A stretch of DNA of 64,000 nucleotides from the IMG/VR virus record IMGVR_UViG_3300045988_130745; one strand, given 5' to 3'. A program made the position numbers and the translations under genes. Origin of the DNA: a virus. The notes under the pieces were generated by a model. The model was not told where the DNA came from, searched no databases, and worked only from the letters and a program-made list of their open reading frames with translations. Of this stretch, positions 5,146-29,543 are shown in pieces; positions within the stretch are counted from its first letter, which is position 1, and every line of letters starts with the position of its first letter.

Positions 5146-6987
5146 ATGCCGGGTAAAACACTAAAAACTAGAATACAAAACAAAGTTGACTCATTAGCTA
5201 ACTTACAAGCTAATAACCCCTATATTCTTGCGGGCGAGCTTGTAACTGCTTACACTACCGTTGGAGTTAAGCAAGAGGATGGTAATGTAGTTCAAAAGAG
5301 AGTCGCTTATATCTATGTAGGTCCGGGCAACTTTAACGACTTGTATCCTATTGTAGGACCTTCTGCCGATGTTAAGGCTTGGGCCAAGGTCGATAATTTT
5401 GTCGATGTCGTTATTGAAAAATTAACTAAGACTGACGAGAAAGGCGACATTGCTGAGAATGATACAGTTAATACAATGATTAACCGTATCAATAATAACT
5501 TCGCGCAAATTAAAACTGATATGCCATCTAAGACTTCTGATTTAACCAATGATGGCGAAGGTGCTGAAGTTCCTATTAAGGATTTCATTACTGGTTATGA
5601 GTCTTATTAGTTTGTAAGTCGAGATTCAGTTAAAAATTATATTAACACTTTTGGTTTGCAAGACCTAGAAGAAATCAAAAAGAAACTTGCCGAACTCGAA
5701 AAGAAAGTTGATGATAATTTAAAGGCGATTGATGAACGCTTTAAGTTATATTATACTAAGACTGAAATTAACGATTTACTTGCTGGTTATCTTAAAGGTG
5801 TTTAGATTGGCGATAAAGATGGCGGAGTTGTACTCAGTCCTGCTTCTACTGTGGTCACTTCTGGACAGCTTTGGACTCAGATTAAAGATGCTTCTCAAAA
5901 GGATATTGAGAAGATTGCTGACGCAGCTGCTTCTACTGCTCTCAGTCAAGCTAAGACTTATACTGATACTAAGTTAAGTGAATTTATCACTATTTCTTAT
6001 AAAGGCCCTTATGATTCTTATGCGGCTTTACTTGCAGACAATGTTGATGGCGGTAAAGCTGGTGTCATTTATCTTGTAAGTCATAACCATAATGATAATG
6101 ATAGTTATGATTCAACAGATAGTGATATATTTGATGAGTACATTTGGGTTACACGTCAAGATGGTGGGCAACCTGGCTTTGAGAAAGTTGGTAATACAGA
6201 TGTTAAGTTAAGCAGCTATCTCCAGGCCGCACTCAAAGAAGATAAAACTGGGGTTCTTGAAGGCGACGAAGGTTCTGTCTCTAAAATTGAGGTTGTTGAA
6301 GATCCTGTTGGTAGTGGCAACAAGTTCTTTAAAGTAACTTATAAGACTTTAATCAAGAGTGAGACATTTGATGCTGGTAAGGTTGCTGTTGGTTTTGGTA
6401 ATGGTGCATTAAAATCATCTGCTTTAGTCAATATTCCTTTAGCTGGTATCGTAGCAGGTAGCGCAGAATCTGATATTAACGAAACCACTACATTGGGTGG
6501 GGCAATTAGAAACTTAGAAACCAAGATTGCTGATGCAAAAGCCGACGGTGTTAAAGAGGTTGATATTGCTACCGATGGCGGCGTTGATGTTAGTGGTGGC
6601 CCGATTACAAATAAGGGCACATTAAAGGTTAGCCACTCTTTAAGAGCAACTGCAACTTCTGCTGTCAGTGATACTGTTGGTTCCGCAGATGAACGCACTT
6701 ACGTTAAAGAAATTGCTCTCGATAAATATGGTCATATTGTTAATGTTACTACTGGTAAGGAAACAAATGTTGATAGTTATGCTACCGGTGGTTCATTTGC
6801 TGCGGATAATACAAAAATTGAATTAACCGTTACTGGCACTGGTCCTAATTTCAAAACATTTAAAGCAGGACTTAATAAATTGCCTGCTATGTTATTATCT
6901 CAAACTGATGCCGAAGATGATTTTTTAGTACTTTATTGTGGCACCAGTAGCATTTTAGCTTCAACAGAACAAATCAATTATACCTGA
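5146..6987 (+). CDS. tail fibre protein
   Basis: ORFs 5146..5610 and 5851..6987 share a frame across TAGs 5608 and 5803. Long Thr/Ser/Gly/Asp-rich fibre-like sequence. Confidence 0.7.
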
Positions 6988-12546: not shown

Positions 12547-13097
12547 ATGGGGAGTATTCCTAGAGCTAATACCCCCCCCCCGTAATAGATAAAACTCTAT
12601 CGGTGGAGGGTGCAGTAGCAGAAAGTAAAGCGGTTGGTGACAAATTTAATTCAACAATTTTATCTTCGCCGTTATATAAATCAAAATTTGTTACCGGCTT
12701 AGGAATTTACAATTACAATTTTGGCCAACTTGCGACTAATGTAATTACAAAATATCAAGATGGTTCTTTTCTTGTTGAAATTACATTTGTAGGACATTAG
12801 CATAGCATTAGCTCAAATTCAGCTTTTGATTGGCTAAGCGGCAATGGCTTAACAGAAGACGCAAAAAGTCTAACTGGTAAAAGCAATTATAAACCAACAG
12901 CTAATTGTTTCCCCCTATTGGGCAAAGGAGTAATTCCTGCCGAAGAAGGATATAGTCCTTATGTTAGATTAACTGGAATTAATGGACATCTAAGAGTTGG
13001 ACGTATTTATGAAGCAACTGCCAATCTAGGTGATTACCAGAACTCTGTATAGCACACTGGTAATTATAGTTTTAGAATTACTTTAATTCTTTATTAA
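12547..13097 (+). CDS. fibre-tip cassette C, interrupted at a C10 tract
   Basis: ATG 12547 (RBS AAGGAG) gives MGSIPRANT(P)n. With 10 C the ATG frame hits TAA 12583. The ORF VIDKTLSVEGAVAESKAVGDK... (contains track ORF 12603..12800, TAGs 12798 and 13050, TAA 13095-97) needs 11 or 8 C. Confidence 0.55.
12572..12581 (+). repeat. C10 homopolymer tract
   Basis: Counted c12572-c12581. Confidence 0.85.
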
Positions 13098-13119
13098 TTA
13101 TATAAAATTCTTAATGTTA

Positions 13120-13150
13120 GTGCTCTCCATATTGGAGGGCACTTTTATTT
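13120..13150 (+). terminator. Rho-independent terminator
   Basis: GTGCTCTCCA/TGGAGGGCAC stem followed by TTTTATTTT. Confidence 0.7.
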
Positions 13151-13182
13151 TAGAACAAAATTTTTTATAGGAGGAAATCGCA

Positions 13183-15540
13183 ATGGATATACTCCTTTTC
13201 GGAACTCTCCGAAAATATATCGACGATACTCTTCAAGGCATGGGTGCGCTCAAAGGCGAAAAAGGCGATCGTGGAGAAAAAGGTGCCCAAGGTCCAAAAG
13301 GCGATAAAGGCGACAAGGGAGACAAAGGCGCACAAGGACTTCGCGGTATTCAAGGCTTAACTGGTGCCACTGGCGCGAAAGGCGAACGTGGCGCTCAAGG
13401 TATCCAAGGTTTAACCGGCCCCCAAGGTATCCCTGGCGTGCAAGGCATCCAAGGTCCAAAAGGCGAGAAAGGTGACAAAGGTGAAACCGGTCCCGTTGGT
13501 AAACGCGGTGTCCCTGGAGTTAATTACAACATTAAATACTTCTTGTCTACTCTTAATGAATTAAATGCCATCACTCCTGTTACCGGTTATGACGAAGCTA
13601 TTTTCGCTTATGTTGCTGAGAATAAATCAATCTATTATTCTTATGAAAGTTCTCCTTGGGCTTTCTTTGCAGATGCGTCTAATCTTTAGTTTGCGCGCGG
13701 AGAGCAAGGTGAGCAAGGTCCTCAAGGTGAGAAAGGTGATAAAGGTGACCAAGGCATTCAAGGCATCCAAGGACCGCAAGGTATCCAAGGGCCTCAAGGT
13801 CTTCAGGGCATCCAAGGAGGTAAAGGAGATAAAGGCGACAAAGGCGACAAAGGCGACCCTCTCACTTGGAATGAAGTTCCAGCAGCTGCGCGCAAAGAAC
13901 TTAAAGGTGAGAAAGGCGACAAAGGCGACACTGGTGATTCTGGTGTTTATTATGGTCCAACTGAGCCAGAAATTGACCAAGAAAAACTCGTTTGGATTGA
14001 TTCATCAGTAGAAGAATCGGCTACCACAATTGATATTGCCAACATTCCTGGACTTCAAAAAGAACTTGATTCTAAAGTTCAACTCCCAGCCAAAATTGAA
14101 AATGATACTCAATTATTTCCCGTTGTAACTTCAAAAGGTACGTCATGGGTCACTCTTGAAGAAACTGTCAACGGAATTGTTAGTGAATGTGTAAATATCA
14201 TCGTGCGTGGCACAGACAATGCGACTCTTAAAGGCACTGAAATTTATCTTCACGATGTAACAACTGACACTATATCTACTTTTGAATGGAATGGAACCAG
14301 TTTGACTATTTATGTTTTAAATGGACACAAATATTTTATCAGTGGCGCTGAAGTTGAAGGATATGAGCCTGCCGCGGATAGTTTACAATATATTGCGCGA
14401 GCTGCATAGACTCGTACAATCACTTTATCTTATCCGCGCTCAGAAGAAGCAGAATATGGCATCCGATTTTTAATTGAATCATCAGATCCATCATGTGAGC
14501 GTGTAGTAGTCAAAAATAATATTACAACTTATGGCGAAGATACGGGTTTGGTGGCTGCTATTGGTACCAAACTCACTATGCCTAAAAACAGTTTTGACGA
14601 CATCTATCCTTGGTCAGATATTCGCATTGTAACTGATTCTGATAATGCTGCCGAGGCTGCGCAAACGATGGTTAAAATTCCAAAATATTATGTCAAGGTC
14701 ACTGTTGATGATACCTATGAAACTTGGATGATTAGTCGTTATAAAAAAGCAGGATACCGTGTCGCAAAAATGTTTGCTCGTCCTGATGGAACCGAAGCAG
14801 ACTATTATGAATATGCCCGTTACGAGACCAGTGACACTAATCGTTCTCAAACTGGCGTCACTCCTCAAAGTTCAACCACTATTGAAGCATTTAGAACTGC
14901 CGCTCTTGGATTAGGTGATAATTGGCATCCAGCTGGACTTGCAGATCGAACTGATGGACTTCAGATGCTAATGACTATTGAATTTGCTACTCGCAACATT
15001 CAGTCAATAGCAGAAGGTTTGGTTAATTCTAAAACCGTTTCTGATTGCGGTTTGACCGATGGTTTAACTATTACCGAAGATTCAAAGGGCATTAAGCCTT
15101 ATTCTGGTATTGTTAAAAATGCTTTTTCTTATCGTGGAATTGAAAACCCTTACGGTAATTTACTTGAATATGCTGATGGTATTATTTTAAACAATTCTCG
15201 TGTGTACTATTGCGACGATTGGACTCGTTGGAGTAATTCAATCAATTCAAGTTACGTTCAAGCCGTTGGTACTATTCCAACTTTAAGCGGATTTATTACT
15301 AAATTGAATTATAATGAAGCTAATCCTTGGATGCGTTTGCCTAGCGAAGTAGTCACTACTGGCGATAGCGATAGTAATTATGGCGACTATTATAATGCTC
15401 CAACCGCAGATTATACCTTGCCAGTTTATGGCGGTGGTTATTCTACCAATTTGCGTGCGGGCTTATTCCACTGGAATTGTACTCGTACTTTTAATGAAAC
15501 AAATAGAGACATTGGTTCTCGTTTGGCTCGTAGTTTTTAA
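13183..15540 (+). CDS. collagen-like tail fibre protein
   Basis: ORFs 13183..13689, 14203..14409 and 14548..15540 share a frame across TAGs 13687 and 14407. Two blocks of Gly-X-Y repeats ([19 protein letters not shown]...). Confidence 0.8.
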
Positions 15541-17561: not shown

Positions 17562-17909
17562 ATGAAACTTTACGGAAGTATTGCGAATTATAACTCTATA
17601 TCTGGCACAATTAATCCAGCGGGTGATATTTCCGGTGCGCTATCTAATCCGCTGGCGCGTGGTGCTTCAGCCTATGAAATTGCTGTTGCTAATGGCTATG
17701 TAGGAACTGAGGAGAAGTGGCTTGAATCACTCTAGGGGCGAACTCCTTAGCGTGGAGTTGATTATTGGACGGCCGCAGATATAGAGCAAATGAAACAAGA
17801 GTTTAGAGAATAGATGGCTAATGAAATTCAATAGGCAGTCAAAAATTTAAACTTAGATGTTTCTTTTGATATTGAAGATGGACATTTATTTGTGGATATA
17901 AAGGGGTGA
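17562..17909 (+). CDS. tail fibre N-terminal-type protein
   Basis: ATG 17562 to TGA 17907-09 with 4 in-frame TAGs. [49 protein letters not shown] is paralogous to 4553..5140. Confidence 0.6.
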
Positions 17910-17913
17910 GTTA

Positions 17914-18231
17914 ATGGACATAATTACACTTGCGTTGACTCGTAAGGCAGTTAGAGATGCTCACGTTGACCATATAGGACCACAAGGACCGGTTGGACCG
18001 AAAGGTGAGAAAGGCGATAAAGGTGACCCATTTACTTGGAACGATCTCACTGCGGAGCAAAAGAAAGAATTAACTGGTCCAAAAGGTGATAAAGGCGATA
18101 CAGGTGGAGTTGGCTATGTCTCTTTTGAGAGTGGCAACGATGGACACTTGTACGCCGTTATTGCCGAAGGGACTGATGAAATCAGTTTCAGAATTTCCGA
18201 TGATGGTAAGCTGGAGGTAATCTACGCATGA
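17914..18231 (+). CDS. short collagen-like protein
   Basis: Track ORF containing [17 protein letters not shown] and [11 protein letters not shown] triplets. Confidence 0.7.
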
Positions 18232-20651
18232 GTAAAAGAATAGATTTAGGCGCAGTAACCGCTTACGCCATTGCAGTTAAAAATGGATTTGAAGGCACAG
18301 AAGTAGCCTGGCTTGCAAGTCTTAAAGGTGCAAAGGGCGACAGGGGTGAAAAAGGCGAGCAAGGCGCGCCAGGTATTTAGGGAGAAAGAGGAGCAACTGG
18401 TGAAACTGGCCCTATTGGCCCTCAAGGTATCCAAGGACCAAGAGGTGCTCAAGGTGAGAAAGGAGATACTGGCAATGTCGGCCCAGCTGGTCCTCAAGGA
18501 CTAAAAGGCGAAACTGGTGCAGTTGGACCAGCTGGGCCGCAAGGTAAGCAAGGCATCCAAGGTGAAAAAGGTGAAACTGGTGCTGCAGGCGCCCGAGGTG
18601 AACAAGGTCCGCAAGGTATTCAAGGCATTCAAGGTCCAAAAGGCGAGAAAGGCGATCCTTTCAGTATAAAGAAAATTTATGTTTCTGTTGCTGCAATGAA
18701 TGCTGATTTTGACGGTACTGATACTTCTACTGGTGATTTTGTTCTTATTAACACTGGCAATGTTGCAGATGAAGATAATGCAAAGCTCTATGTAAAAGGC
18801 GAGAGTGCTTTTACTTTTGTCACTGATTTGTCCGGCGCGGCTGGTATACAAGGTCCGCAAGGTCCTCAAGGAGTGCAGGGTGTTCAAGGAGAACAAGGTA
18901 TTCCGGGTGTAAAGGGTGACAAAGGTGATCCAGGCTCTGATGCAACTGTCACTACTGATAATATCACCTCTGCTCTTGGCTATACTCCCGCAGATTCAAC
19001 CAAAGTTTACACTAAAACTGAAGTTGACGGAATGATTGATGGTGTTTATGCTCAAGCCGTTCGCAATGCGACTTCTGTTGCTCAAGTCAACGGCTTGTTC
19101 CAAGAGTGGTGGAAGAAAAATTGGGTTGAAGATACCTCCACCCACACTCAAATGCTTGAGCGTTGGTTTGGAAATGTTCTTACCAGTAGCAAGGTTTATG
19201 GTACCAAGCTACCTTTGTTTGCTACTTCAAATAGTGCAAATGGCGAGTATATTGACGATTCTGTTGGCATGACTTGCACTCCTTCAACTAACGCAGTTCT
19301 TGGTCAAGATGACTTCGCATTCAAGCCAGAGTTCTGGTGCATCGAAGCATCTGGTGAGCATAATTCTGACGGTTCAATTACTATCTATGCTGTTGAATTA
19401 ATTGATGACATTGCTACCGTTCGTTCTGGCGAGCATTTGACTTGGGTTCTTCAAAAGAATACTTATTGGCATGAATATACCAGTGAAGGTTATCATTTCG
19501 TCGAACTCAAATCAACTCCTGATGAAACTTGGCATCGTTGGCCGCAAGGTACATCAAAAGATGGTACAGTTCATGAGTTTATTGCTAACCCGAAGTATTA
19601 TGCCGGAATGAAAGATGGAACTATTACTGTTGGCACTAATCTTCCTGCAATTAATTTTACTTCTCATCAATCTGGCGTTGCTCTATGGCGCAAGCGTGGC
19701 AGTCAATACTCTGGCGCGAGTGGCAACCTTATCAAGTTCCTTGATATTATGATGAAGTTAAAGTATGCTAAGAAAGGTAACTCTGGGACTATTGAAGGTT
19801 GTTCAAACTATAACTGGCAATATACTACTCCTGTTGGCGAGACAGGCGTAGAACGTATTATTGTTACTACCGCGCAGGGTGCAAATATTAAAGTTGGCTC
19901 AACTGTTATTATTGGTAAGAAAGGCGGCTCTACCGATCGTGGCGATAGTGCTATGAGAAGCCTTGTTTCAATGAAGAAAGTCAAAAGTTTGGAGCCAGTC
20001 ACTATTGATGATACTTCTTATACAGCCGTTAATATTGATAATGGCGGAACAACTTTTGATACAGTTGCGAGTGAGACAATGATTTCTTCTATGCCTTATC
20101 ACTCTGGATACAATGACAACGTATTAGGTTATGATGGCAGTGCAACTAATTACACCAATGGTTCTGAACCTGGTTTGCTCCAGAAGATTGAGTTCCAGAA
20201 TGGTGCTTATCTGATTATTTCAGATGAATTGTGGCAATGGAGCAAAGATGATACAAACTATATGTTTGATTGCTATACTTGCCATGATTAGTCAAAAGTT
20301 ACTACTAATGGAACAATTTCTTCTGACTATACAAAGCAAGCTGATTTGACTTTGAAGTGGGCAGTTGAGGGTGCTAATACAAGTTGGCACTGGGAATATA
20401 TTGAAGATACTGCAATCGCTAATGATCCAGCAGTTTGCTGGCCAGCTAAAGTATCCACGACAGCTGGTAGCGGAACTGGTTGTAAAGCTGGCTTCGGCGT
20501 CGCTTTGGCGTCGTCTGGTGTGCGTGCTGGTTGGTGTTTCTGCGGTTTGTGGGGTGGCGGTCTTTGTGGTGTTTCAGCTCGTAACTCGGACGTTTCTCCT
20601 TCGTATTCTGGCTGGTACGGGGCGCTCGGCGGTCCAGGTCTTGCGGGGTGA
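18228..20651 (+). CDS. DGR target: collagen-like tail fibre with C-terminal variable domain
   Basis: ATG 18228 is in frame with ORFs 18696..20291 and 20346..20651 across TAGs 18378 and 20289. Gly-X-Y repeats near the N-terminus. The last ~50 codons are the VR ([33 protein letters not shown]...). Confidence 0.85.
20489..20635 (+). repeat. DGR variable repeat (VR)
   Basis: 147 bp alignable without gaps to 20992-21138 (offset 503). 19 mismatches, every one at a TR adenine. Confidence 0.9.
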
Positions 20652-20690
20652 ATCGAAGCCTAGGAGCACGAAGTGCGGATAGGCAAGAGA

Positions 20691-20706
20691 GGGGACGCAA
20701 GTCCCC
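20691..20706 (+). promoter_or_regulatory. GC hairpin downstream of VR (candidate DGR target-recognition element)
   Basis: GGGGAC-GCAA-GTCCCC: 6-bp GC stem with a GNRA-type loop, 40 nt after the target stop. Confidence 0.5.
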
Positions 20707-20991
20707 GTTATAATGGAAACGACCCATCCGTGCGATACGCCCGACTGTTGACTCGATCTCAATTGAATGCAGCAATAGCATGATTTAATTGAACCATTAA
20801 CTTTCAAGTCTTGTTTCATACGAAACCGAGATAGATTCAATGACTTTACCGCCATTCAAGAATCTATATAACCTAGAATAAAATTCCAAGGATACGATTC
20901 AAAGTTTAGGGAAGGATTTCTCTACTACAAAATCCTCCATTCAGTTCTTTCGGCGCTTAACGAAAGTAGGGACGTATTCCGTTGGCAGATT

Positions 20992-21138
20992 TGGCTTCAA
21001 CGTCAATTTGGCGTCGTCTGGTGTGCGTGCTGGTTGGTGTTTCTACAATTTGTAGAATGGCGGTAATTGTGGTGTTTCAGCTCGTAACTCGAACAATTCT
21101 CCTTCGAATTCTAACTGGAACGGGGCGCTCGGCGGTCC
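20992..21138 (+). repeat. DGR template repeat (TR)
   Basis: Invariant copy with 25 adenines, 19 of them substituted in VR. AAC/AAT codons are phased with VR codons. Confidence 0.9.
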
Positions 21139-21141
21139 TAG

Positions 21142-21245
21142 CCGGTCTTGCTTGCGGAGCAGTTTTACAACAATAATGCGGATTACGTTCCTAGACTTAT
21201 TTAGTTGAAATTGCTCCTGCGTAGTCAAGACCGGCTTATTTTTTT
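21142..21245 (+). promoter_or_regulatory. extended stem immediately 3' of TR, followed by a T-run
   Basis: CCGGTCTTG (21142-50) pairs with CAAGACCGG (21226-34). GGAGCA (21156-61) pairs with TGCTCC (21212-17). CTTATTTTTTT follows. Confidence 0.5.
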
Positions 21246-21336
21246 ATTCAGAAAAGAATAAGCTTAACCGCGTCTAGTAGCTTCGGCGAAAGTCGCACGG
21301 GGAGACCGGCCAAAGGACTAATAAGGAGGGCTACTT

Positions 21337-22644
21337 ATAAAGACTTTTTGTAAGCCCGCAAATACTAATATATGCGATCCAGAGTTTATTTACTGGGCGG
21401 TTTATGATTGTGTTAAGCATAAACTTTATCGTAATGATTTTCTTGATTTATTATGTACTCAAACAGGTATATCTCGCCGCGTAGTGATAAAGGAGCGTTC
21501 ACAATTAAATGAATCAACTCCTATGATTGACGGCGCAATCAAGAAATTATCTGAAAAATGCGCTCAAATGATTGCTGATAACAAACTTAAATTTAGAGAA
21601 CTTCGTCAATTCAATCGAGTTGATGGTATTTCTGGAAAGAAAAGAGATATTTGTCAAGAATCTCCTCTCCAGCAAGTATTTGAATACATCGCGGTTTACG
21701 CACTTCAACCACTTTTTGATGCTAAAATTTTATATTGCCAATTTGGCAGTATCCCAGGTAAGGGACAAGTCAAGGGCGCGCAAAGAATTTCATATATTCT
21801 CAATAGTCCAAAGTTCAAAGACAAACGAGTGGACTGTATTAAATGTGACGTCCGCAAGGCTTATCCATCAACAAAAGTAAGCACTGTTCATAATCTTATC
21901 ACTAAATATTGCGGTAAGAATAAATAGTTAATTGGTTTAGTTGATGCTATCATGGCAAACTACCCTAATCACCATTTAATTATTGGTGGCTACTTTTCCA
22001 CTTGGACATTTAATTTAGTAATGAGTGAAGTTTTGCGTGAGTTTAATAAACTTTATAAAGAGCGCCGTGGACAGCGAATTAAACTGGTCGAAAAAATTGT
22101 TTGCTATGCAGATGATTTTCTCTTGTTTGGATACAAGTCCAATTTGGAGCGTGCGATTAAGACAGTTGCTAAACGTATTAAAGCACAATTTGGTTTAGAA
22201 ATCAAAAATGTCTGGACGATAATTCAATTCCCATCTAAAGAGGTTGAAAACCATCCTCGCTATAAAAATACTTTTATTGATATGATGGGTTTCAGAATTT
22301 ATCGCCATTACCGTGGCATCCGCAAGAAAATTTTTCGCAGAGCGCGTAGACAATTTATCCGTGCAAATCAACTCTCTTATGTACCTGTTTGGAGAGCGCG
22401 AAAAGTTGCGGCATATAATAGCTGGCTTACATATTCTAAAAGTCGTGGAGTAATCCTCAATTATCATATAAATACCCTAATGAATCGTTCGAAGCAATCC
22501 ATATCTAATCATTCTAGGGAGGAATTGACAAGTTATGAAAGAGACTTATTGCTCTATCCCGAAAGCTGTTTTGACTTTCCCCGTTGGCGGAAAAACCGAC
22601 GTTATTTTGAGGAAAAATATCGAAAAAGTCACCAAACAGGGTAA
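21337..22644 (+). CDS. DGR reverse transcriptase
   Basis: ORFs 21484..21927 and 21952..22644 share a frame across TAG 21925. The frame stays open upstream to TAA 21322, and TAAGGAGGG RBS lies at 21321-30, so the start is uncertain (no ATG; ATA 21337 or GTG 21484). Motifs IPGKGQ and VCYADDFLLFG (YxDD). Confidence 0.8.
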
Positions 22645-22888
22645 TTCGGAAGAAGAAACCTATGATGCTTACGAGTGCGACGAAGTTCAATTCCGTTATG
22701 ATGGCGCGCTGACAGTAGAAGAAGTTGAAAATGATTTTGACTCTTGGTGGAATTATCCAGCCAAGGCTTCTATGACTCTTGACGAGCGTGTCTCCGCACT
22801 TGAAAATTCAAAAGCAGATAAATCAGATGTAGAACAAATTTACGATGCTATTGCTGCAGCCTATCAAGAAGGAGTGCAATCAGTATGA
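22535..22888 (+). CDS. hypothetical acidic protein
   Basis: Track ORF with AGGGAGGA RBS. Overlaps the 3' end of the RT frame by ~110 nt. Confidence 0.6.
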   Translation: MKETYCSIPKAVLTFPVGGKTDVILRKNIEKVTKQGNSEEETYDAYECDEVQFRYDGALTVEEVENDFDSWWNYPAKASMTLDERVSALENSKADKSDVEQIYDAIAAAYQEGVQSV

Positions 22889-23330: not shown

Positions 23331-23359
23331 GGGTTGGAAGAAATTCCAGCCCATTTTTT
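23331..23359 (+). terminator. Rho-independent terminator ending the structural block
   Basis: GGGTTGGA/TCCAGCCC stem followed by ATTTTTT. Confidence 0.7.
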
Positions 23360-23362
23360 GTA

Positions 23363-23391
23363 TTGACTCCCGCACAAAGATATGATATAAT
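23363..23391 (+). promoter_or_regulatory. conserved promoter module P1
   Basis: TTGACT 23363-68, 17-nt spacer, TGA-extended TATAAT 23386-91, then ATTTATAGAAAGT. Confidence 0.75.
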
Positions 23392-23418
23392 ATTTATAGA
23401 AAGTTAAGGAGAATGATT

Positions 23419-23718
23419 ATGACAAAGTTTAAAATTTATGCTGGTTTGAAGCGCCCTTATGCGCCATTGCATTTAGTTGATGAAAAAGAATTTTTGACTA
23501 ATCGAGAAGCAAAATGGTATGCTCGTGAGTGCGCGAGAAAGATTTATCGCGATCATGAACCTTATGATTCTGCTCTTGTGACTAAAGAAGAAATTCGTGA
23601 GCATCCAACTGATTTTGGCATTTATCCTTTGGAAGAGGAAGATTTCTTTGAGTCCGATGTTGAGCTTGAGTATCTTCACGCAATGGATAATTGGTTGCTT
23701 TTTGATGTGGAATTTTAA
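23419..23718 (+). CDS. hypothetical protein
   Basis: ATG 23419 lies 7 nt after AAGGAG, inside track ORF 23413..23718. Confidence 0.65.
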   Translation: MTKFKIYAGLKRPYAPLHLVDEKEFLTNREAKWYARECARKIYRDHEPYDSALVTKEEIREHPTDFGIYPLEEEDFFESDVELEYLHAMDNWLLFDVEF

Positions 23719-23727
23719 TTATTCCTA

Positions 23728-23756
23728 TTGACTTTTTAAGATATATATGATATAAT
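23728..23756 (+). promoter_or_regulatory. conserved promoter module P2
   Basis: TTGACT 23728-33, 17 nt, TGA TATAAT 23751-56, then ATATATAGAAAAT. Confidence 0.75.
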
Positions 23757-23789
23757 ATATATAGAAAATCAAGAGAGGAAGAATGAGTA

Positions 23790-24322: not shown

Positions 24323-24772
24323 TTGATTGTTTCTGAGATTGAAATGAATATGAAAGCCGCGCTGAAACAGGATAGAATGGAAGATAAGAATGATTATTCT
24401 TATCTTTTATCTCGCTTTCGCGCGAAAGAAGTTGAGCTTCGCCGTGAATTGACTAATGACGAAGCTATCGACGTTATCCGCAAGGAAGTCAAACAGATGC
24501 AGAAAGATTATGACGCAATGTCTGGCGATTTGCTCAACACTCATTATGCTAAGGGCTTGAAGCGTCAGATTGACCTTTATTCCATCTACTTGCCTAAAAT
24601 GATGTCTTATGATGAGGTTTTGGATTATCTGCGTGGAATGGATGCTGAGTGTATGCTCCCAACTGCTTTTGGCGCAGCGATGAAAGCTGTTCGCGCGGAG
24701 ATTGGCGCAAAAGCAGATGGTAAGACCATCTCTCAGGCGTTGAAAAATTATATGGCTCAGGAGAAAAAGTAA
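24323..24772 (+). CDS. GatB/YqeY-domain protein
   Basis: Track ORF. The pattern KAALKQD...LSRFRAKEVEL..LTNDEAIDVIRKEVKQMQKDYD...IYLPKMMSYDEV matches the YqeY/GatB C-terminal domain layout. Confidence 0.6.
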   Translation: MIVSEIEMNMKAALKQDRMEDKNDYSYLLSRFRAKEVELRRELTNDEAIDVIRKEVKQMQKDYDAMSGDLLNTHYAKGLKRQIDLYSIYLPKMMSYDEVLDYLRGMDAECMLPTAFGAAMKAVRAEIGAKADGKTISQALKNYMAQEKK

Positions 24773-28796: not shown

Positions 28797-29543
28797 ATGC
28801 ATAATCCTATTTGTGGTATTTATAAAATTACTAATTTGATTAATGGAAAATGTTACATCGGTTAGAGTGTGAATATCAAACAAAGATGGAGAGATCATCG
28901 TTCAAGGGCCATATCCAAAGGTTCAGAAGGGTTTGAGAGTTATTTTTATCGTTCTATTAGAAAATATGGACTAGAGAATTTTTCTTTTGAAATCTTGGAA
29001 GAATGTCCTAAAGAATAGTTAAATGAAAAAGAGCAATTTTATATTGCAAAGTATCATTCAAATCAAGAAAGTTTTGGTTACAATTTAACTGAAGGCGGCG
29101 ATTCTGTAGGAGGAAAAGCAAAGAAACTTTCTGATAAAGAGTTGCAAAGCATAATTTATGATTTGAAGAATACGTTGTTATCATAGGCTGAAATTGGGTA
29201 GAAATACCATATTGCTTAGACTACAGTTAGTGGTATTAATCGAGGAGAATTTCGTTATTAGGACAATGAAATTTATCCATTAAGGACAAGAAATGTTTTA
29301 AAAGAACGTGGTTTTGTTGATGGCTATAAGACTTGCCCAATTTGCGGAAAGAAATTTCAAGGCAAAGCTAAAACTTGTTCGATTGAATGTGGTAAAATTC
29401 GTGTAAGAAAAATAAAAGTAATTCCTAAACGAAGTGCTTTAAAATATCTAATTCGTAATTATTCATTTGAATGGATTGGTCATCAATTCGGAGTAAGTAG
29501 TAACACAATAAAGAAATATTGTGATAAAGCTAATTTACCTTGA
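28797..29543 (+). CDS. GIY-YIG homing endonuclease, paralog of 25875..26651, ends at an in-frame TGA
   Basis: ATG 28797 (RBS GGAGGAG). GIYKITNLINGKCYIG(TAG)S..QRWRDH. 6 in-frame TAGs. TGA at 29541-43, but the same frame continues with conserved ...SYSDGEWEKV to TAA 29592-94. Confidence 0.75.

Follow-up and report, generated by a model that had tools for sequence, protein, structure and literature searches.

What happens when the template of a diversity-generating retroelement (DGR) carries, at one of its mutable positions, a codon that the standard genetic code reads as a stop? The question is raised by a locus in a 64,000-nt stretch of viral DNA (IMG/VR record IMGVR_UViG_3300045988_130745, hereafter the window), for which an initial annotation had proposed that the template holds TAG and TAC as mutable codons tolerated only by a recoded genetic code, and that the DGR and the alternative code had co-adapted. 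Taken together, the anatomy of the cassette, its variation among related genomes and its wider phylogenetic context make it very probable that we are dealing with an active DGR, without an Avd gene nearby, in a human-gut phage of about 176-180 kb whose late genes read TAG as glutamine.

A repeat search found a single 147-nt direct repeat, at 20489-20635 and 20992-21138 (offset 503, 87% identity). The two copies differ at 19 positions, and since all of these mismatches (19/19) are A in the downstream copy, 20992-21138 is the template repeat (TR); it is non-coding and identical or nearly so across the contigs of the clade. The upstream copy, placed by the repeat pair and the reading frame, is the variable repeat (VR), which spans 49 codons, stops five codons short of the end of the target gene and has its last base 16 nt from the stop codon (VR, TR, target gene, reverse transcriptase gene, both hairpins described below and all codons discussed lie on the + strand). 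The TR is located 356 nt 3' of the VR with no gene in between, and in relatives the VR-TR gap (offsets 254-424) is too short for an Avd gene; Pfam and PHROGs searches of the ORFs between 16.7 and 25.1 kb, that is within about 5 kb of the cassette, found no Avd-like gene either. A short GC hairpin (GGGGAC-GCAA-GTCCCC) predicted by DNA folding at 20691-20706, 55 nt 3' of the VR, is an only suggestive candidate for a target-site hairpin, the whole region folding no better than its shuffles (z = -1.1). In the spacer between the TR and the reverse transcriptase gene, directly 3' of the TR, RNA folding predicts a long hairpin at 21139-21237; the fold of 21122-21340 reaches -80.4 kcal/mol (z = -4.2), which 0 of 200 shuffles equal, and Rfam searches of the VR-TR-RT intergenic regions assigned the hairpin to no family and returned chance-level matches only. 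The hairpin is near-perfect, and its 5' arm is similar to the sequence directly 3' of the VR (GGTCTTGC...GCGG).

With TAG read as sense, the target gene is a collagen-like tail fibre of 807 codons at 18228-20651, closed by TGA at 20649-51. Collagen is its only Pfam domain (E = 1.6e-21), PHROGs places it in a tail-fibre module, and the 760 codons of its frame that precede the VR are open in 17 related loci when TAG is sense. Many other DGR VRs show homology to the VR motif GVRAxW...ARNS...W.G. PDB sequences gave no profile match to the fibre tip, and an AlphaFold2 model of the homologue P0102, whose contig is too short to include its TR, had a pLDDT of 51 overall and below 40 over the VR, too low to read a C-type lectin fold from it. 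Two more collagen-like fibre genes lie 5' of the target, at 13087-15540 and 17914-18231. Just 3' of the DGR a 56-nt element occurs in two copies (23353-23408 and 23718-23773) and resembles a sigma-70-type promoter (TTGAC-N17-TATAAT).

The reverse transcriptase (RT) gene at 21337-22644 scores 36.6 bits against Pfam RVT_1 (cut-off 29.6), has a YADD motif and contains one in-frame TAG, at 21925-27, across which the RVT_1 match runs. We found 101 homologues, and where their loci were retrieved TR/VR pairs adjoin. The canonical DGR RT signature GxxxSQ is absent: the stretch encoded at 21950-21990 reads L-I-I-G-G-Y-F-S-T-W, the family consensus is IGGYLSxW, and the residue following the Ser is variable in the family alignment. 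The GxxxSP variant of Epsilon crAss-like phages, mentioned in PMC12386605, is a precedent for deviation from SQ. The RT frame has no ATG, GTG or TTG ahead of 21484, and a strong AAGGAGG at 21323-29 is followed after 7 nt by ATA at 21337-39, from where the window reads ATA-AAG-ACT-TTT-TGT-AAG-CCC, aligned with the M-K-T-Y-C-K-P (MKTYCKP) that begins RT homologues. This ATA is kept in 27 clade loci, and the corresponding codon is TTG in one diverged relative (L105) and ATG in another (L106). To judge from this alignment, the RT probably initiates at ATA 21337.

The reading frame of the TR is fixed by the target ORF, by 11 AAY codons and by the homology of its peptide to 32 other templates. In that frame 21041-21061 reads TTC TAC AAT TTG TAG AAT GGC and the facing stretch of the VR, 20538-20558, reads TTC TGC GGT TTG TGG GGT GGC, so that both the register and the VR codons are those that the initial annotation had derived. 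The TAG occupies 21053-21055 and faces the VR codon at 20550-20552, which is TGG (Trp) in the window; the TAC occupies 21044-21046. The template counts 11 AAY codons, a single TAC and a single TAG. Of its 25 adenines 24 stand at codon position 1 or 2, the exception being the third position of a TCA, where change is synonymous, and among 16 VR variants every AAY, TAC and TAG site varies at position 1 or 2. Under code 15 the template keeps to the stop-avoidance rule of DGRs, as none of its codons can turn into TAA or TGA; under code 11 the rule is broken by the TAG at 21053-55. The TAC was wrongly included among the codons that need recoding, as it gives Tyr, Phe, Ser or Cys, can never become a stop, and occurs together with TAT in the TRs of standard-code relatives. 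The proposal that the TAG widens the accessible repertoire holds in part. Trp and Gln, which are among the five residues beyond the reach of AAY codons, become accessible, and Trp is the commonest residue at the site; the site itself has been narrowed, from the 15 amino acids that AAC can yield to four.

That TAG is a sense codon, and most probably glutamine, was likewise upheld. In the window, ORF coverage rises from 53.6 to 78.0 kb when TAG is read as sense. A codon-level comparison set the window against 20 related loci of 87-98% identity. It gave 25 sites with TAG in a relative and another codon in the window, that codon being CAA or CAG at 20 of them; conversely, loci that differ at a TAG of the window have CAG or CAA almost always, the exceptions being AAA at 17832 and AAT at 29016 (one locus each). 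The same exchange is seen within the cassette, at two in-frame TAGs of the fibre gene and one of the RT gene. The TAG at 18378-18380 lies in the collagen repeat as G-I-TAG-G near several G-I-Q-G, and its orthologues are TAG in 7 loci and CAA in 1; that at 20289-20291, 120 codons before the stop of the target gene, has CAG as its counterpart in 12 loci and CAA and TAG in one each; and that at 21925 in the RT gene is CAG in 13 and TAG in 4 of 17 loci. Additional support comes from the RT of a relative that is 60% identical (L104), which has 8 in-frame TAGs, three of them at invariant or nearly invariant Gln residues, including those of QQVFEY and QYGS. The fibre gene at 13087-15540 has three in-frame TAGs, with orthologous codons that are TAG, CAA or CAG depending on the strain, and an ORF at 600-1670 has four together with a C-terminal GIY-YIG homing-endonuclease domain (PHROGs E = 5e-21). 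In-frame TAGs are spread unevenly, at 0.2-0.3 per kb in 32-36 kb and 44-55 kb versus 2.2-4.6 per kb elsewhere, and the dense blocks comprise the fibre and tRNA regions and others, including the region of a radical-SAM-like gene at 36-41.5 kb. Judged from codon content, this patchiness appears to be the pattern described for late-gene-recoding phages.

A suppressor tRNA did not turn up. The window has 15 tRNAs, none of them with a CUA anticodon by ARAGORN, Rfam, ARAGORN at a low threshold or an intron-aware run, and 22 related loci gave no tRNA(CUA) either; the case for TAG decoding is therefore a comparative one. The 64 kb searched here leave about 112 kb of the genome outside the window. Two predictions of "tRNA-Pyl(cta)", at 6242-6331 and c20774-20867, were rejected for their poor cloverleaves, and a "tRNA-???" reported by ARAGORN at 43391-43467 is not a suppressor but a tRNA-Arg(CCU) whose anticodon stem is bulged by one base. 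A tRNA-Glu(UUC) at 42279-42351, detected by Rfam only, is not a suppressor either. Between the DGR and the first tRNA cluster, the ORF at 24323-24772 has a YqeY/GatB-like domain (Pfam PF09424, E = 1e-13) and, given that TAG stands for Gln in this phage, may have a bearing on Gln-tRNA metabolism.

We next asked how the template TAG behaves where the DGR is at work. Pattern scans with N at the TR-adenine positions, run over IMG/VR and public metagenome assemblies, recovered related contigs that all come from the human gut, are 87-98% identical to the window and in several cases measure 130-180 kb. Their TRs are alike except for rare non-A changes, and the TAG is always present. Against this essentially invariant template the related genomes hold 16 distinct VRs, whose variation is concentrated at the 25 TR adenines; non-A changes amount to 11 scattered singletons across the 16. 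Varied VRs amid near-identical genomes show that DGR activity is ongoing and adenine-specific. In one record (IMGVR_UViG_3300045988_135559) a VR stands at both contig ends (L110:102-247 and L111:13224-13369), with TAG at the site in one and TGG in the other; two variants thus coexist within one sample, at whose VR heterogeneity the assembly broke. In a small contig of 2459 nt and coverage 1.9 (L013, ORCM01014203) the 5' half of a mutated VR is followed directly by the TR's 3' half and flank, equivalent to a 503-nt VR/TR deletion; the contig is recombinant or else was misassembled across the repeat.

At the TAG site (21054) the 16 VRs have A in 4, C in 4, G in 8 and T in none, which gives TAG 4, TGG 8, TCG 4 and TTG 0 at the codon level; at the TAC site three codons upstream (21045) they have A in 4, C in 3, G in 8 and T in 1. 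Mean retention of A over the other 24 adenine sites is 38.5%, from which the 4/16 at the TAG site does not differ (binomial p = 0.31). Since its retention equals that at the TAC site and is not below the mean, TAG is kept at the frequency expected without counter-selection, in what is a small sample (n = 16) of assembled consensus sequences, one or two per sample. The initial annotation had allowed that TAG might never appear at the VR position; in fact it does so in 4/16 distinct VRs, as often as A is retained at the TAC site, and of the predicted products Ser, Trp and Gln are found and Leu is absent from the 16 variants. The TAG-bearing VRs are the least mutated, with 8-15 A changes vs 14-22, and this low mutation load is the neutral expectation, yet it makes mild selection against TAG harder to detect. 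In the genomes that bear them the target ORF is otherwise intact and contains 2-7 additional in-frame TAGs.

How old is the template TAG? Two diverged relatives, reached by way of RT homologues, keep TTG TAG AAT in their TRs. In L105 (RT 56% and TR 84% identical) the facing VR codon is TGG, and the fibre gene has TAG where the window has Gln, so that here too the target gene is recoded. In L106 (RT 55% and TR 66% identical) the target gene is off the contig, and its five genes are without any TAG, so the code cannot be read from them. A degenerate pattern scan of IMG/VR for further members of these TAG-bearing sublineages returned the same six contigs only. In the GenBank phage collection we found no megablast match to 18200-22700, and tblastn with the RT found relatives of at most 31% identity.

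Standard-code relatives show what stood at the site before. We retrieved 48 such loci, with RTs 41-47% identical, 32 distinct TRs and fibre genes free of in-frame TAG, and a further one, L113, which is the nearest standard-code relative by fibre sequence (tip 63% identical). The TR peptide ...SGVRAxWCFxNL-x-NGGN... is homologous in these relatives, and codons can therefore be aligned one to one; theirs reads ...W-C-F-G-N-L-N-N-G-G-N..., and unlike the window all 49 (L030-L103 and L113) have AAC opposite the TAG. In L113 the stretch is TAC AAC TTG AAC AAC GGC GGT AAT TGT, against TAC AAT TTG TAG AAT GGC GGT AAT TGT in the window. TAG thus replaced AAC inside the recoded clade. None of the 49 standard-code templates contains a stop codon, including those of L062, L033 and L057 by alternative phasing, and stop-capable codons are confined to one lineage, which has a never-varying AAG at its repeat edge. 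A second comparison served to gauge generality. An independent lineage of TAG-recoded DGRs, 80 loci reached through an RT sequence in Lou et al. 2023, yielded 75 templates, and 75/75 are without TAG or any stop-capable codon even though their fibre ORFs hold 2-4 in-frame TAGs. A difference in template codons between recoded and standard-code DGRs is seen for this clade set against its 49 relatives, and not in the independent recoded lineage. Recoding permits a template TAG and does not generally produce one, and to speak of co-adaptation on the strength of one clade was an overstatement.

The mechanism that best accommodates these observations is as follows. The RT (21337-22644) would copy TR RNA into cDNA, misincorporating opposite template adenines, and the cDNA would replace the VR at the C-terminal tip of the collagen-like tail fibre. 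The middle A of the TAG would be mutagenised as any adenine, each retrohoming event then writing TAG, TCG, TGG or TTG. As TAG is sense in late genes, the unmutated outcome would be a full-length fibre with Gln, not one truncated by 33 residues. Even under the standard code the template would not be "lethal", as had been supposed, since the result would be a large share of variants with a fibre shorter by those 33 residues and not the death of the phage. We infer that recoding came first and opened the way for a TAG in the template, that fibres from genes with this TAG are functional, and that the site stays TAG because the set of Trp, Ser, Gln and perhaps Leu is useful there.

Could the TAG simply be without consequence, the TR being mis-phased or the repeat pair decayed and inactive? 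We found nothing in favour of this and give it practically no credence, for the frame is set by the ORF, by the AAY codons and by peptide homology to other templates, and the 16 VRs vary at adenines around a constant TR, two of them in one sample. It is also very improbable that TAG is still a stop, such that TAG-bearing VRs encode truncated fibres, non-functional or acting as decoys, the TAG of the template then being either defective or an on/off switch. The window does lack a suppressor tRNA, and standard gene callers do cut at TAG, the called target of L105 ending at one; however, orthologous codons interchange TAG with CAA and CAG, TAG occupies invariant Gln residues of an RT, and in-frame homology persists across TAGs in both the RT domain and the fibre gene. 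Moreover, TAG is retained at the VR site as often as A is at the harmless TAC site, and every fibre gene of the clade has other in-frame TAGs far upstream.

A more substantial alternative to a TAG that is tolerated and useful is that the template TAG was selected in adaptive co-evolution and, by being written time and again into an essential host-recognition gene, ties fibre production to the suppression-competent late state and the lineage to code 15. The set of Trp, Gln, Ser and Leu is one that no single-adenine codon offers stop-free under the standard code. Three sublineages, with TRs now only 64-84% identical, have kept TAG; Trp, out of AAY reach, is the commonest residue at the site (8/16); and with AAC in all standard-code relatives, two substitutions must have been fixed in the recoded clade. 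Nevertheless, we hold this account to be possible rather than likely. All of its cases belong to one clade and hence possibly to one event, and the independent recoded lineage managed without TAG in every one of its 75 templates. A stop-free route to Trp exists via AGG and is used by other DGRs (our reading of the Arg-to-Gly and Arg-to-Trp sites of L108 and L109, taken from the residue changes and not from printed TR codons). With G as the most frequent replacement at many sites, RT bias rather than selection may lie behind the excess of TGG, and since the TR overwrites coding sequence, the codon is in any case constrained in its T and G. Somewhat more doubtful still is the full version of this idea, in which the reassigned stop is an evolved part of the diversification programme, the TR TAG being under selection and the retroelement acting as a code-15 ratchet. 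If it were true, the set of Trp, Gln, Ser and Leu would stand at a receptor-contact position, the repeated writing of TAG would make the lineage dependent on code 15, the cassette would not be transferable to standard-code phages, and this would be the first targeted mutagenesis system with a codon design tuned to an alternative genetic code.

The reading we prefer, of a DGR that works normally with a TAG that is sense, has consequences of its own. It means that the stop-avoidance rule of DGRs is relative to the code: it holds for the code of the phage, where TAA and TGA are avoided, and not for the standard code. TAG variants of a host-recognition protein at a frequency that betrays no selection argue for efficient decoding of TAG in late genes, and a retroelement that keeps re-introducing in-frame TAGs may help to lock a lineage into the recoded state. 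In practical terms, code-11 gene callers and DGR finders will cut such targets short, even differently from strain to strain, and engineered DGRs in recoded hosts could use reassigned codons to reach amino-acid sets beyond those of AAY.

How does this DGR compare with known systems? In the prototype BPP-1 (mtd VR, TR, avd, brt), as here, an RT copies a non-coding TR with adenine-specific errors, and the copy replaces the VR at the 3' end of a receptor-binding tail-fibre gene; both systems have a GC-rich 3' end common to the two repeats, followed by divergence, and a template made up mostly of AAY. The preference of DGR templates for AAC/AAU has been put down to the avoidance of stops, and a single event in BPP-1 leaves about 69% of the template adenines unchanged (PMC12875486). 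Unlike BPP-1, the window DGR has no Avd gene within about 5 kb, its TR lies 356 nt 3' of the VR with no gene in between, its RT has IGGYFST instead of GxxxSQ and a probable ATA start, and its phage reads TAG as Gln and places an in-frame TAG at a variable TR site, which BPP-1-type templates avoid.

DGRs in TAG-recoded gut phages are known from the persisting code-15 phages of Lou et al. 2023 (bioRxiv 10.1101/2023.08.07.552389), and Avd-less DGRs with recoded RT genes from Zeta crAss-like gut phages (PMC12386605). As far as the accessible parts of these two sources go, their DGRs resemble that of the window in combining a recoded RT with a recoded tail-fibre target, in being mostly Avd-less and in belonging to large, tRNA-rich gut phage genomes, and unlike the window they are not reported to have a reassigned stop inside the template. 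A search of the wider literature, partial in its sources and not exhaustive, likewise turned up no mention of a reassigned stop codon within a DGR template. In layout (VR, short spacer, TR, RT) the cassette is that of its standard-code relatives.

On the side of the genetic code, Ivanova et al. 2014 and Borges et al. 2022 are said to have described stop-codon recoding of phage late genes, with code 15 assigning TAG to Gln. Like other code-15 phages, ours has its in-frame TAGs mostly in structural and late genes, with TAG-free blocks elsewhere, and uses TAG interchangeably with CAG and CAA. It is unlike them in that the suppressor tRNA usually cited is absent from the 64-kb window, and unlike code-15 phages generally in that a mutagenic retroelement, rather than point mutation, repeatedly writes the reassigned codon into a gene. 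The same code, with TAG as Gln, is used in PMC8241571. The template TAG is therefore best seen as an apparently undescribed twist on two known phenomena, DGRs and TAG recoding, and as it follows logically once TAG is a sense codon, specialists in either would find it neat rather than startling.
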